Shown one piece after another: positions 9,424 to 15,243 of a stretch of 32,000 bases of DNA. The notes beneath the pieces were generated by a model. The model searched no databases. It was not told the DNA's origin and worked only from the letters and a program-made list of their open reading frames with translations. This DNA comes from Halomonas cerina (GTDB lineage: Bacteria; Pseudomonadota; Gammaproteobacteria; Pseudomonadales; Halomonadaceae). Each line of letters starts with the position of its first letter. The stretch's first letter is position 1. The stretch spans positions 119,744 through 151,743 of the forward strand of contig NZ_JACHXP010000003.1 in NCBI RefSeq assembly GCF_014192215.1. The letters are read 5' to 3'. A program made the translations under genes and the position numbers.

Positions 9424-9659
9424 TTCTCATCCCCTGCTATGCTGAAGTTTGCAGAATGTAACTGTAGTGTTTCTCAGTGTGTGTGATTGGACACTTCGGC
9501 GAAGTCAAGAGCCGGGCAGATGCCGGCCAACGAACGACGCGTCAGCGCGTGGTCCGAAGCGTGTCATTCCCGATGCCCTCGGCAGGGTCATGTAGCGCGG
9601 TGGTTCACGTGGGCGACGGGATCCGCGTTCGTTGCCAACAAGGGATGAGGTGAGTCGCG

Positions 9660-11104: not shown

Positions 11105-11134
11105 AGGCCTGTCTGCTCCCTGACAGGCCTTTTT
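11105..11134 (+). terminator. Rho-independent terminator after the bEBP gene
   Basis: Stem AGGCCTGTC (11105-11113), an 8-nt loop and stem GACAGGCCT (11122-11130), followed by TTTT. Confidence 0.75.
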
Positions 11135-11267
11135 CGTGCTCGGGCCGAGGCCCTTCTGCCGCGCGCCTGACTCACGCCTGTGACACTTGGTCGATCATTT
11201 TCTAACTGTTTGATTTTTTTATATTTTACGGCGTATAACGCGTGCTGCACCCGTGGCAGGCGTGTTC

Positions 11268-11287
11268 ATGTAACAAAAGAGTTACAT
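11268..11287. promoter_or_regulatory. Candidate upstream activating sequence, perfect palindrome ATGTAAC-N6-GTTACAT
   Basis: This 7-6-7 perfect inverted repeat is centred about 62 bp upstream of the -24 GG, the position expected for a bEBP enhancer. Confidence 0.5.
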
Positions 11288-11292
11288 TCTAT

Positions 11293-11305
11293 TATCAGCA
11301 ATTTG
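11293..11305 (+). promoter_or_regulatory. IHF-like site between UAS and sigma-54 promoter
   Basis: TATCAGcaatTTG has one mismatch to WATCAA-N4-TTR. It is embedded in a very AT-rich stretch of an otherwise GC-rich genome. Confidence 0.35.
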
Positions 11306-11338
11306 ATTTTTCTTTAATAAAAACAATAACCTACAAGT

Positions 11339-11354
11339 TGGCACGCCTATTGCT
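11339..11354 (+). promoter_or_regulatory. Sigma-54 (-24/-12) promoter
   Basis: TGGCACG-CCTA-TTGCT is a perfect match to TGGCAC-N5-TTGCW. It lies 47 nt upstream of the first SD-preceded ATG (11401) and directly downstream of a bEBP gene. Confidence 0.85.
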
Positions 11355-11400
11355 CCTTAAATTGTAAAAAAGAGTGACTGAACGTTTTGGAGCTGCCGAC

Positions 11401-11781
11401 ATGCCCTTCCCCTCCTGCCCCATATGCCTTCATGCCAGCCCTCATCGGGCATGCCGCCTGTTCGGGCTGCTGCTGGGCCTCGCCATGGGGGTCGGGGGAG
11501 CGAGCGCCCAGGCACATGGCGTGGTCGGTGATACCGCAACCGGCGAGGGGGCGGCCGACGCGAGCGGGCTGGTGCGCCTGGATGATGAGAGGCTTGCAGC
11601 GATTCGCGGGCGCTACCTCGACGCTCGGAGCTTCACCGATCAGGACGGTGACTTCGTGATCCTCTGGGACGAGCGTCCCCCGGGAAACGCCGGCGGCAAA
11701 GGGCAGGGCAATGGCAAGTCGCTCTCCTCCGGGCTCGGCAATCAACAGCACACCCGCGTAACCAGCCATAGGGAGCAGTGA
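11401..11781 (+). CDS. Small secreted protein of unknown family (first gene of the sigma-54 operon)
   Basis: A GGAG SD lies 8 nt before ATG 11401. The signal-peptide-like N-terminus is RACRLFGLLLGLAMGVGGASAQA. Motifs LDDERLAAIRG and GDFVILWD are shared with the next ORF. The track start at 11374 would leave almost no 5' UTR after the predicted TSS. Confidence 0.55.
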   Translation: MPFPSCPICLHASPHRACRLFGLLLGLAMGVGGASAQAHGVVGDTATGEGAADASGLVRLDDERLAAIRGRYLDARSFTDQDGDFVILWDERPPGNAGGKGQGNGKSLSSGLGNQQHTRVTSHREQ

Positions 11782-11783
11782 AC

Positions 11784-12290
11784 ATGAGCGACCGCCATCT
11801 ACATTTCTCGCGTACCGCCCGCCGCTGGCTGCTGGTGGTGGCCCTGGCCACACCGGCCGCGGGCCTGCAGGCCGACGATGGCACCTCGGGGGCGCGGCTG
11901 AATCCCGGTGTCCTGCCCGGTGACATCGTCATCCTTCGCGATGTCGATTCGGCCGTATACGGCCAGGTCGAGCGCCATGCCGGGGAGATCACGTCGCGGG
12001 TCAATGCCCGCCATGGCGCCCTGGAGGCCCAGCAGCGGCTGATCGGCATCCAGGCTATCTCCCTCAGCGACGAACGGGCCGCCAGCATCCACGGCGGTGT
12101 GCAGGGATCGATACACCATCTACATCGGGCGCTGGGGACCCATCCGGGCATGGGCGCCCGCGCCACCGGCAGCGCCAGTCGGGCGCCATCCGTGCTCGGG
12201 GGAAGCGCTGGCGGCAGCGTTCGCTCGCTCACCTCGGGCATCGCCGACACCCTCGATGGGGCGCTGGCACCGCTGACAGGAGGGCGCTGA
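11784..12290 (+). CDS. Small secreted protein of unknown family (second gene)
   Basis: A GGGAG SD lies 8 nt before ATG 11784, and the start is 2 nt after the upstream stop. The signal peptide is RRWLLVVALATPAAGLQA. Motifs GDIVILRD and LSDERAASIHG are present, with a Gly/Ser/Ala-rich C-terminal tail. Confidence 0.6.
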   Translation: MSDRHLHFSRTARRWLLVVALATPAAGLQADDGTSGARLNPGVLPGDIVILRDVDSAVYGQVERHAGEITSRVNARHGALEAQQRLIGIQAISLSDERAASIHGGVQGSIHHLHRALGTHPGMGARATGSASRAPSVLGGSAGGSVRSLTSGIADTLDGALAPLTGGR

Positions 12291-12292
12291 GC

Positions 12293-12703
12293 ATGGATGA
12301 CGGGACGAGCACCATCCACACGTTGCTCCAGCTGGCAAGCCACCTAGAGGACCTCACGCCTCATCAGGTCAGCACCAAGATTCAGGACCACGCCTTTCGG
12401 CAGTCACAGGGCTGGCTGTCGGTCAATCAGACGGCGGGTCTCGGTAATGTACGGAGCCACCCCGAAGGGGGTGTTCTGAGCATCTCGGCCAGCCACCTCA
12501 ACGACACCATCCTGCAGCAGGTGCTGGCCGACAGGCAGGGGCTGAATGGTGACCGCGATGACCGAACGGATCTCTCGCGCAGGATCGAGGTCGACGAGTC
12601 GATCTTCGAGGGAGCCCGCGGCGTCATCCAGGTCAACCAGTCAGCCGGCACGGGGAACGCTACCCGCCACAGCTTTAGCATGTCCATACAGCTCGCGCGG
12701 TAG
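12293..12703 (+). CDS. Leaderless 136-aa protein with two degenerate copies of the amyloid-repeat core
   Basis: An AGGAGG SD is present and the ATG is 2 nt after the upstream stop. GWLSVNQTAGLGNVRSH (aa 40-56) and GVIQVNQSAGTGNATRH (aa 110-126) share G-x3-VN-x2-AG-x-GN with the repeats of the next gene. No N-terminal signal peptide is visible. Confidence 0.6.
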   Translation: MDDGTSTIHTLLQLASHLEDLTPHQVSTKIQDHAFRQSQGWLSVNQTAGLGNVRSHPEGGVLSISASHLNDTILQQVLADRQGLNGDRDDRTDLSRRIEVDESIFEGARGVIQVNQSAGTGNATRHSFSMSIQLAR

Positions 12704-12755
12704 GTAGCGACATCGCAATGCAACGAAACGCGTTGGTTCATTCAGGAGAAAGCTC

Positions 12756-13913
12756 ATGACCACCTTCAAGAAAGCACCGCTGGCCTTGGCCGTTACCGCA
12801 CTGATGGCCACCCCCTACGCCCTGGCCGATGGCGTCAACAACAGCTTCATCGGCAGCTACAACAAGTTCGACACCGACAGCACCATCGACTCCGATTTCG
12901 ACAATCGGATCGATGTGGAACTGCGCCACGACTCGGACACCTACAAGGACTTCTACGTCAATGTCTGGACCTTTGACCCGGCGCGCCACTACTCCGGGGC
13001 CACCGTGGACAGCAAGCAGCTGATCAACTACGCCGACGTGACCAACCGCATGGCCGAGAACAACGCCACCCTGAATGGCAATGCACTGGAAGGTGCCTCG
13101 GGCAACGTGGGCGTCAACGTGGCGGCCGGTGACAGCAACAGTCAGGCCAATGACGCTGCCCTGTCGGCCTCGGATGCCGAACGGGTATTCGGCCAGGCCG
13201 CGGCCTTCTCGGCCCAGTCCTCCTCCAACACCTATGTGGCAAGCACCGGTAGCCCCAACAACGCCACTCTCGCCGATTATGCCCTGCAGGGCGCCACCGG
13301 CAATATCGGCGTCAACGTGGCCGCCGGGGTCGGCAACGCCCAGCAGAACTCGCTGGCCGCCTCCTCCAATACCCGGTCCGGCTCTGCCGATGCCACCACC
13401 GGTGGCGTGCAGACCGCCTACTACAACTACAGCCGCAGCCAGGGCCACACCGAGACCTTCACCAACCGGGTCGGCGTCAGGGTGTCCGGGGTGATGGTGG
13501 GCGGCTACCTCGGCGGCGGCAGCGGCGGCTACGCGGGCACCTGGGAGCAGACCAACCAGGTCTACCCGGAGATCTGGCTGGGCGGCTCCGAGGCAAGCGG
13601 CCACCCGGGGGGCTCCACCTACGTGGGTCACCTGGACTTCGATGGCAACAGTGCCAACACCGACCAGTTCGCCGGCACGGAGCGAGGCCGCCTCGGCTTC
13701 CGCGAGGCGGGCCTGATGGCCATGGGCGGCACCCTGTCCGGCGGCGTGACCACCACCAACACCGTCTATATCGCCGCCGAGAACAACGCCACCCTGAGCG
13801 ACTACGCCCTGTTGGGCGCCAGTGGCAATATCGGCGTGAACGTGGCCGCGGGCAACAACAACCTGCAGCGCAACTCCCTGGCCATCGCCTCGGCCACGGG
13901 TGGAACGCAGTAA
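12756..13913 (+). CDS. Secreted FapC-like repeat protein (putative functional-amyloid or adhesin major subunit)
   Basis: An AGGAGA SD and the Sec signal peptide MTTFKKAPLALAVTALMATPYALA are present. There are three 37-aa repeats of the form NNATL-x3-AL-x-GA-x-GN[VI]GVNVAAG-x2-N-x-Q-x-N. The protein is Cys-free and rich in N/Q/G/A/S/T. Confidence 0.8.
   Translation: MTTFKKAPLALAVTALMATPYALADGVNNSFIGSYNKFDTDSTIDSDFDNRIDVELRHDSDTYKDFYVNVWTFDPARHYSGATVDSKQLINYADVTNRMAENNATLNGNALEGASGNVGVNVAAGDSNSQANDAALSASDAERVFGQAAAFSAQSSSNTYVASTGSPNNATLADYALQGATGNIGVNVAAGVGNAQQNSLAASSNTRSGSADATTGGVQTAYYNYSRSQGHTETFTNRVGVRVSGVMVGGYLGGGSGGYAGTWEQTNQVYPEIWLGGSEASGHPGGSTYVGHLDFDGNSANTDQFAGTERGRLGFREAGLMAMGGTLSGGVTTTNTVYIAAENNATLSDYALLGASGNIGVNVAAGNNNLQRNSLAIASATGGTQ
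13059..13169 (+). repeat. Amyloid-type imperfect repeat R1 (aa 102-138)
   Basis: The R1 sequence is NNATLNGNALEGASGNVGVNVAAGDSNSQANDAALSA. Confidence 0.85.
13257..13367 (+). repeat. Amyloid-type imperfect repeat R2 (aa 168-204)
   Basis: The R2 sequence is NNATLADYALQGATGNIGVNVAAGVGNAQQNSLAASS. Confidence 0.85.
13782..13892 (+). repeat. Amyloid-type imperfect repeat R3 (aa 343-379)
   Basis: The R3 sequence is NNATLSDYALLGASGNIGVNVAAGNNNLQRNSLAIAS. It is also similar to R2 at the DNA level. Confidence 0.85.
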
Positions 13914-13954
13914 ACCCTCGGCCGGGGCCTTCCCGGCCGACGGTGCCACATGCC

Positions 13955-13990
13955 ACCCGGCCTGCCGAGCAGGCCGGGTGTTTGTTGTGG
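13955..13990 (+). terminator. Hairpin terminator/attenuator after the repeat-protein gene
   Basis: A 10-bp stem ACCCGGCCTG / CAGGCCGGGT with a 5-nt loop is followed by GTTTGTTGT. A second GC hairpin (TCGGCCGG...CCGGCCGA) lies at about 13919-13939. Confidence 0.6.
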
Positions 13991-14157
13991 TGCGCCAGGC
14001 ATGGCGTGAGGCCTGTGACTGTAAGGACTGGTCAGGCACGCTGCGCTGACGACGACCAACGGAGGGGTGGTCTACACTTGGCTAGCTTAATACGCTAGTC
14101 ATCGGTAACCAGCAATATACACAGCCGAGGTCCGGCAGACAGTAGAGGCACAAGGAG

Positions 14158-15243
14158 ATGAGTGTGGAAAAAACAGATGTTTTCATGACGAAGCGGGTGC
14201 CACCCCTCTCCCTCTTCCTCATGGCGGCCTCCTTCGGAGGGGCCACGGCAGTGCAGGCGCAGATGACCGGTGACGACGGCGAGGTGGTGCGTCAGGCCCG
14301 ACCCAGCCAGAGCGTGGAGAATGTGCTGAGGGAGGAACACGCGCTCTTCTCGGACCGGCTGACCATCGAACCGGGCATCAACTACTCCTACTCCGATCGC
14401 TCCCAGCTGGCGCTGCGCGGTTTCCTGGCCTTGGATGCCATCTTCCTGGGCAATATCGATGTCGATACGGTCGAAAGCCACATCACTACCTTCGATATCA
14501 ATACCCGCTACGGCCTGACCGACCGGCTCGAGGTGGGCCTCAATCTCCCCTTCGTCTATCGCAGCAGCACCTACCAGTCGATCGGGGCCGATAATGATAC
14601 TGAGCAGAATGAAGAAACCTCGGTGGATGAGTCGGATGTAGGGGATATCAGCCTGACCTTCGCCTACCGGATGCTGCCGGAGACCGAGACCCGCCCCGAC
14701 CTGGTATGGAACTTCGCCGTCCGGGCGCCCACCGGTACAGACCCCTACGGCATTGCGACCAGAGAAGCGGGGGACAATCTATTTGTACCCACCGAACTAC
14801 CCACGGGCAATGGCGTCTGGGGGGTGAGCACGGGGATCTCGGCGCTCAAGACTCTGGACCCGGCGATCGTCTTCGCCAACCTGGGCTTCACCTACAACTT
14901 CGAGGAGAGCTTCGACGATATCTCGGCAACGGACGGCGACCAGCCGGGCGACGTCAAGCTGGGGGACAGCATCCGCGCCGGCTTCGGCACGGCCTTTGCT
15001 CTCAATGAACGCTTCAGCCTGTCGCTCTCCTATGCCCATGAGTACATCAAGAAGTCGGAAACGACGACCGAGGAAGGGGGGACCCGTGAGGTGATCGGCA
15101 GCGATGCCAATGTCGGGGTAATGAGCCTGGGCGGGACCTATGCCATGAGCGACAGTACCTCCCTCGTCACCAGCCTGGGGGTAGGGCTCACCGATGATGC
15201 CTCGGATGTCAGCCTGACCTTCCGCATGCCCTTCCAGATGTAA
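14158..15243 (+). CDS. Outer-membrane beta-barrel protein (transporter-like; occupies the position FapF has in fap operons)
   Basis: The signal peptide is KRVPPLSLFLMAASFGGATAVQAQ. Alternating amphipathic strands run throughout, with the motifs DVGDISLTFAYRML and VRAPTGTDPY, and the aromatic-rich C-terminus LTFRMPFQM. GTG 14164 (AGGAG SD 6 nt upstream) or ATG 14185 are alternative starts. Confidence 0.72.
   Translation: MSVEKTDVFMTKRVPPLSLFLMAASFGGATAVQAQMTGDDGEVVRQARPSQSVENVLREEHALFSDRLTIEPGINYSYSDRSQLALRGFLALDAIFLGNIDVDTVESHITTFDINTRYGLTDRLEVGLNLPFVYRSSTYQSIGADNDTEQNEETSVDESDVGDISLTFAYRMLPETETRPDLVWNFAVRAPTGTDPYGIATREAGDNLFVPTELPTGNGVWGVSTGISALKTLDPAIVFANLGFTYNFEESFDDISATDGDQPGDVKLGDSIRAGFGTAFALNERFSLSLSYAHEYIKKSETTTEEGGTREVIGSDANVGVMSLGGTYAMSDSTSLVTSLGVGLTDDASDVSLTFRMPFQM

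Follow-up and report, generated by a model that had tools for sequence, protein, structure and literature searches.

A putative sigma-54, enhancer-dependent promoter and its BrfA-like activator gene at a fap operon of Halomonas cerina

The stretch of Halomonas cerina DNA analysed here, 32,000 nucleotides long and called the window throughout, carries at positions 11179–11354 what is very probably the enhancer-dependent promoter of an operon for the functional amyloid Fap, with the enhancer-binding protein (bEBP) encoded next to it as the likely activator; we put the probability of this reading at about 0.85. Judging from the comparisons presented below, the promoter appears to be the Halomonas counterpart of a system already published for Pseudomonas and not a new mechanism; we count the module as a member of the BrfA-RpoN-fap kind because the homology of the bEBP, the promoter and the 18-bp frame of the enhancer site all match Pseudomonas. 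No paper on Fap regulation in Halomonas was found in the literature searched. Features are listed in Table 1.

Table 1. Features of the fap locus and of its paralogous operon (window positions unless a contig is named).
Feature	Position	Strand	Remarks
Putative sigma-70 extended −10 of the bEBP gene, TGCTATGCT	9435–9443	+	immediately follows the FemAB-like stop codon
Second-copy candidate operator, TGTAAC-TGTAGT-GTTTCT	9457–9474	+	about +7 to +24 of the putative sigma-70 start
BrfA-family bEBP, 462 aa	9660–11048	+	pseudo-receiver, AAA+ with GAFTGA, Fis-type HTH
Intrinsic-terminator-like hairpin and T run	11105–11140	+	after the bEBP gene; hairpin at 11105–11130, its 9-bp stem with 6 GC pairs, then TTTTTCGTGCT
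Distal UAS-like site, 18-bp frame, TGTGACACTTGGTCGATC	11179–11196	+	TGTGACA half-site; 90 bp upstream of the proximal UAS
Proximal UAS (candidate), ATGTAAC-AAAAGA-GTTACAT	11268–11287	+	perfect palindrome; 18-bp core TGT-N12-ACA at 11269–11286
First-noted IHF-like site, TATCAGCAATTTG	11293–11305	+	1 mismatch to WATCAA
A-rich block abutting −24, AAACAATAACCTA	11321–11333	+	2 mismatches to the IHF consensus WATCAANNNNTTR
Sigma-54 −24/−12 promoter (predicted), TGGCACGCCTATTGCT	11339–11354	+	0 mismatches to consensus; start predicted at about 11365
Target operon, orfX-fapA-fapB'-fapC-fapF	11401–15243	+	five co-oriented genes
orfX	11401–11781	+	126-aa secreted protein, no family
FapA-like	11778–12290	+	NCBIfam FapA, 4e-5 (weak)
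FapB, apparently 5'-truncated	12293–12703	+	NCBIfam FapB, 4e-17
FapC	12756–13913	+	NCBIfam FapC, 2e-50
FapF	14158–15243	+	NCBIfam FapF, 7.5e-108
Second fap operon (L155)	C1, about 51.8–55.3 kb	−	full-length FapB, FapC, FapD (C39 peptidase, 1e-78), FapE (8e-31)

Two fap operons and their sigma-54 promoters

Sites were assigned to the sigma-54 class when GG and GC stand 10 bp apart within TGGCAC-N5-TTGCW. TGGCACG-CCTA-TTGCT, read directly at 11339–11354, has the two dinucleotides at this distance, and the start given in Table 1 is predicted by the rule that places the C of GC at −12. The exact 16-mer TGGCACG-N4-TTGCW occurs twice in the 4.17-Mb genome, about one copy being expected from base composition; both copies are intergenic and lie just upstream of fap operons, the other one (C1:55308–55323, minus strand) heading the second fap operon. 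For comparison with other species, we gathered 23 further Halomonas loci with a bEBP 61–76% identical to that of the window, which, together with the window, makes a set of 24 orthologous loci. A match to TGGCAY-N5-TTGC with at most one mismatch is present 3' of the bEBP gene in all 24; the perfect −24/−12 element described in the initial annotation is thus confirmed both by its lack of mismatches and by its conservation at the orthologous position. RpoN itself is encoded in the genome (C15:89150–90517; TIGR02395, 483 bits, over the cut-off).

Between promoter and operon lies the leader 11355–11400 (GTAA..AGAGTGAC..ACGTT..GGAG), whose sequence is strongly conserved in the closest orthologs as well as in the C1 paralog; its GGAG is 7 nt from the ATG at 11401. 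We rejected the idea that this leader is structured, since RNAalifold gave only −2 kcal/mol, with no covariation. One further sigma-54-like sequence, CGGCACGGCCTTTGCT at 14985–15000, has a single mismatch and falls within the FapF coding sequence, probably by chance, 0.34 such sites being expected per window at one mismatch or fewer.

The operon behind this promoter is a cut-down version of a fap cluster: it has neither fapD nor fapE, all the fap genes of the window score below the NCBIfam equivalog cut-offs, and housekeeping genes (ftsB-ispD-ispF-truD-surE-pcm) follow it. The FapB-like ORF has no signal peptide and covers only positions 79–189 of the FapB profile; it seems to be a 5'-truncated duplicate, because it can be matched to the C1 copy from 12299 onwards. 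From there on, the fapB-fapC DNA is 91% identical between the two loci (window 12299–13924 versus C1). Taken together, the two operons supply all of FapA, B, C, D, E and F.

The two promoters are also built alike. In front of the C1 operon, AGTAAC-ACTACA-TTTACA starts 71 bp upstream of TGGCAC, the corresponding distance being 70 bp for the window site, and a genome-wide search found no bEBP gene on C1. From this likeness, one activator most likely drives both fap operons, and the promoter design that the cut-down operon shares with the C1 operon argues that both are still expressed together. In a related Halomonas, genome G007 (L072, G007:C78:1-16500), a tandem fap duplication lies between the bEBP gene and ftsB in the order FemAB, bEBP, P1, orfX', fapBCDE, P2, orfX, fapA, fapBCDEF, ftsB; to judge by its arrangement, the window may have arisen from such a cluster by deletion or relocation.

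A BrfA-family activator gene next to the promoter

The product of the gene that precedes the promoter matches the Pfam profiles Sigma54_activat (PF00158, 1e-69), AAA_lid_14 and HTH_8 and, weakly, a VpsR-like N-terminus; its GAFTGA loop is intact, GHEKGAFTGA being seen in the alignment. It is 46–48% identical to the bEBP encoded next to fapF in Pseudomonas, from residue 5 to about residue 450, the N-terminal domain included. Used as a query against three Pseudomonas genomes, it finds the fapF-adjacent gene as its best match (E = 3e-114, residues 5–449), the runner-up in these genomes (5e-78) being aligned over the AAA+ domain only. In the reverse direction, Pseudomonas BrfA scores 367 bits with the window gene and 363 bits with a paralog at C3:275851–277194, and because the two are nearly tied, we call the window bEBP a co-ortholog of BrfA. 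In the alignment, the window protein has Glu and BrfA has Gln in place of the phospho-acceptor Asp of receiver domains. The earlier suggestion that the adjacent bEBP is the activator of this promoter has therefore gained a good deal of weight, the protein being a BrfA homologue whose gene adjoins the fap promoter; adjacency and promoter are there to be read directly, and it is from them that we infer control of the fap operon by this bEBP.

The paralog at C3 (about 275.9–277.2 kb) is 58% identical to the window bEBP. The gene after it encodes a weak FapF-like outer-membrane barrel (1.5e-41; C3:275851–278468, L156), and the same pair of genes is found in many Halomonas (L006–L011). Neither a sigma-54 promoter nor a UAS was seen, by eye or by pattern, for the bEBP/outer-membrane protein pair at C3 (about 276–278 kb). 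The paralogous bEBP could share the window UAS or take it over.

The system to which all this has to be compared is that of P. fluorescens PF07, where the −24/−12 promoter of fapA-E was mapped by 5'-RACE and expression is down when either rpoN or brfA, the bEBP gene adjoining fapF, is mutated (Guo et al. 2022, PMC9207406). A passage of PMC13101488, citing Guo et al. 2024 (Microbiol Res 287:127864), presents BrfA as a bEBP that senses c-di-GMP, regulates fapA directly and is widespread in Pseudomonas. We took five Pseudomonadaceae fap loci, four of which were used to compare the DNA upstream of fapA; these four have CGGCACGCCTTCTGCT together with two TGTTTCA-N4-TGAWACA dyads. The dyads have the form TGT-N12-ACA and, from the Pseudomonas sequences, would be the BrfA binding sites.

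The likenesses are many: in both genera, a bEBP gene adjoins the fap cluster and a −24/−12 element precedes the first fap gene; the two regulators align over their full length, with a pseudo-receiver devoid of its Asp and with GAFTGA; and the candidate enhancer site is an 18-bp TGT-N12-ACA dyad whose left half, TGTTTCA, is common to Pseudomonas and to the Halomonas consensus presented below. There are differences as well. The regulator gene is upstream of the operon and co-oriented with it here, whereas it lies downstream of fapF on the opposite strand in Pseudomonas; the right half-site is GTTAACA in Halomonas (GTTACA in this genome) versus TGAWACA in Pseudomonas; the distance between the proximal site and the −24 element is about 84 bp in Pseudomonas and about 71 bp here; and the Fap system is split here over two sigma-54 operons, the window copy having neither fapD nor fapE.

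Position and helical phase of the candidate enhancer site

Measured from the T of TGGCAC, the centre of the perfect palindrome lies 61.5 bp upstream, at about −88 from the predicted start. Scanning the genome for TGTAAC-N6-GTTACA returned this single copy, 0.036 being expected, so that the palindrome is unique. When the 24 loci are anchored on the −24/−12 element, the orthologs have at this place an 18-bp dyad with the consensus TGTTWCA-N4-GTTAACA, then (C/G)TTT, and the window palindrome occupies exactly the same TGT-N12-ACA frame. The TGT-N12-ACA spacing is found in the window and in 21 of the 23 orthologs; the other two, L034 and L003, have the same 18-bp frame with degenerate outer triads. 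The dyad starts 69–73 bp upstream of TGGCAC in 21/24 loci and 82, 83 and 94 bp upstream in the remaining three, that is to say one or two helical turns farther away.

The arrangement extends beyond the genus. The BrfA-like genes of Pontibacterium sinense and of several uncultured gammaproteobacteria likewise precede a sigma-54 promoter that has TGT-N12-ACA at 81–83 bp, and one of these non-Halomonas promoters has a perfect palindrome of its own, TGTAAT-N6-ATTACA. Offsets that differ between genera by whole helical turns are the signature of an enhancer site.

In order to score the window independently of its own palindrome, we built a weight matrix from the other 23 loci, leaving the window out, and ran it on both strands of the 32 kb. 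The palindrome comes first with a score of 14.2; the next two matches (7.9 and 7.6) overlap it, and the best unrelated one reaches 7.3. Applied to the 16.5 kb of G007, the same matrix finds only two matches, each of them 71 bp upstream of a fap sigma-54 promoter. The initial annotation had taken the palindrome for the activator site, and this reading is now backed by a position and a helical phase that are kept among the orthologs. The window site itself is organized as 6+6+6 versus 7+4+7 for the genus consensus, and both half-sites differ; it reads as a lineage-specific variant of the UAS, TGTAAC-N6-GTTACA, in which the two half-sites would have been changed symmetrically. Since both of them depart from the genus consensus, the affinity of the bEBP for the window site is something we assume.

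A weaker bEBP site is probably present farther upstream, near −178. In most of the 24 orthologs, a half-site that is of the TGTNNCA type or close to it precedes the proximal UAS by about 90 bp; full second sites, scoring 18–26, are found in L004, L044–L046, L049 and L005; and the paralogous C1 promoter has an identical CTGTGACACTTGG at the offset seen in the window, about 90 bp beyond its UAS.

An A+T-rich spacer and the possible place of IHF

Classical promoters of the UAS-IHF-sigma-54 type include nifH with NifA, whose UAS is TGT-N10-ACA, Pu with XylR, and glnHp2 with NtrC. The window promoter resembles them in having a dyad some 60–150 bp upstream, an A+T-rich spacer, a −24/−12 element and helical phasing. 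It differs from them in two respects: the best conserved IHF candidate abuts the −24 element, and the dyad is TGT-N12-ACA, a spacing on which a NifA-type UAS was rejected.

The 52-bp spacer between palindrome and promoter has an A+T content of 79%, the genome as a whole having 65.7% G+C, in agreement with the strong A+T richness noted at the outset. The IHF site proposed at the same time, at 11293–11305, found no support: shuffling the same spacer 500 times gave an equal or better match in 112 cases, which is the level of chance, and its position is not conserved. It is the A-rich block next to the −24 element that is conserved. In 14 of 25 promoters, the best IHF-like match starts 18–20 bp upstream of TGG, and four have the perfect consensus WATCAANNNNTTR, namely the C1 paralog, L003, L035 and L036; in the C1 promoter, this perfect match reads TATCAATAACTTA and likewise abuts −24. 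The genome encodes ihfA. Bending of the spacer is likely, be it by IHF or intrinsic.

The dyad upstream of the activator gene

A second copy of the palindrome had been noted upstream of the bEBP gene, at 9457–9474, together with the idea of autoregulation, and its status is more delicate. Within the genome, 15 sites have two mismatches to the palindrome, this element among them; alone, it is thus not above chance, and its support comes from conservation across species. TGTAAC-N6-GTTTCA is found exactly in L031 and L033, TGTAAT-N6-GTATCA in L002 and L032, and TGTAAT-N6-GTATCT in L034; L035–L037 have a TGT-N12-ACA version of the dyad, and the spacers vary in all of these loci. In six species, TGTAAY-N6-GTWTC is kept 10–13 bp after a conserved TGCTATRCT.

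This last motif may belong to the promoter of the bEBP gene. TGCTAYRNT occurs at the same place in 13/24 orthologous loci and stands out as one of two conserved islands when the intergenic DNA is aligned with MAFFT, the other being the dyad; we propose it as a sigma-70 extended −10. A simple sigma-70 scanner found no full −35/−10 promoter for the bEBP gene, so that the proposal rests on this conservation; no sigma-54 promoter was found upstream of the gene either. Placed immediately behind the FemAB-like stop codon, the extended −10 would give the bEBP mRNA a leader of about 210 nt. The dyad would then fall at about +7 to +24, which is where a repressor acts, and this is why negative autoregulation is a reasonable proposal; going by the sequence, we regard repression of the bEBP gene by its own product through 9457–9474 as close to an even bet, perhaps slightly under. 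A protein other than the bEBP could equally be responsible for the dyad.

It could also be argued that 9457–9474 is a functionless chance match and that there is no autoregulation at all, a view we find unlikely, if by no means far-fetched. The 15 two-mismatch matches in the genome fit with it, as do the missing sigma-54 promoter in front of the bEBP gene and the behaviour of the UAS matrix, which leaves the site outside its top six window matches with a score below 6.2. Chance does not readily explain, however, why such half-sites are kept while the spacers between them vary in L031, L033, L034, L002 and L032, or why these and the TGT-N12-ACA versions of L035–L037 all lie about 10–13 bp past the conserved TGCTATRCT. 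The initial proposal of autoregulation is thus supported in part, by the half-sites conserved in six species, and fares poorly with the UAS matrix.

Proposed mechanism and its reach

Returning to the fap promoter, the events can be pictured as follows. Sigma-54 RNA polymerase would bind TGGCACG-N4-TTGCT as a closed complex, and the BrfA-family bEBP would bind TGT-N12-ACA near −88 and probably also the weaker distal site near −178. The spacer, with its 79% A+T, would bend by means of IHF or intrinsically, so that the activator meets the polymerase; ATP hydrolysis would then open the promoter, and orfX, fapA, the truncated fapB, fapC and fapF would be transcribed from about 11365. The same activator would most likely drive fapB-C-D-E on C1 through the degenerate site found there at the same offset. 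If the bEBP behaves like BrfA, c-di-GMP may be its input signal.

A larger picture can be drawn by joining several of these proposals. TGT-N12-ACA would be the code of the whole BrfA family, from Pseudomonas via Halomonas and Pontibacterium to uncultured gammaproteobacteria, with one half-site switched from TGAWACA to GTTAACA to GTTACA and with strict phasing at about 71, 82 and 94 bp; one activator would co-ordinate a Fap system split or duplicated over two operons; and this activator would repress its own sigma-70 promoter via TGTAAC-N6-GTTTCW at 9457–9474. We offer this combination tentatively and would not wager on all of its parts holding at once. What the main reading of the locus brings is an extension of the control of the Fap biofilm amyloid by BrfA and RpoN past Pseudomonas, the one genus for which the literature consulted describes it, to Halomonadaceae and other marine gammaproteobacteria, and a definition, at the level of sequence, of the BrfA-family enhancer site and of its phased placement that can be used to predict Fap regulons.

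Other readings of the palindrome

The assignment of the palindrome to the bEBP is itself deduced from sequence, and one could imagine that it is the operator of an unrelated dimeric regulator, the bEBP binding elsewhere, for instance only at the distal TGTGACA. The departure of the perfect 6-6-6 palindrome from the genus consensus and the existence of a conserved distal half-site lend some colour to this idea, which we nevertheless hold to be quite improbable: in several genera, the dyad accompanies the bEBP gene and the sigma-54 promoter, its offsets differing by whole helical turns, and the bEBP gene is the only conserved regulator gene of the locus. Binding of the palindrome by the bEBP accordingly remains our preferred reading.

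Still less probable, to the point of being nearly negligible, is a GacA/UvrY-type box that would link the locus to a Gac/Rsm pathway instead of, or besides, being bound by the bEBP. GacA boxes sit upstream of the sigma-70 promoters of Rsm/Csr sRNA genes. The initial annotation had raised the possibility because TGTAAC-N6-GTTACA and the GacA box TGTAAG-N6-CTTACA are both 18-bp dyads of the 6-6-6 type that share five of six bases per half-site, and a regulator of the UvrY/SirA/GacA family is indeed encoded on C22 (NF007018, 4.7e-66); what speaks against the idea is that the inner base is C/G here versus G/C in the GacA box, that the likeness is confined to the variant of this genome (the orthologs having TGTTWCA-N4-GTTAACA and Pseudomonas TGTTTCA-N4-TGAWACA), that the palindrome is helically phased to the sigma-54 promoter of a protein-coding operon and not to an sRNA gene, and that the sole near-canonical GacA box of the genome, AGTAAG-CAATAA-CTTACA, is elsewhere (C10:61237–61254). 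Rfam found no sRNA in the window.

As for that C10 box, Rfam returned no Csr/Rsm sRNA beside it, either with the gathering threshold or with hits up to E = 1 admitted. The box (L154, 938–955) lies in A+T-rich intergenic DNA followed by a GGA-rich stretch, and it is possible that this region is a Csr/Rsm-type sRNA gene.
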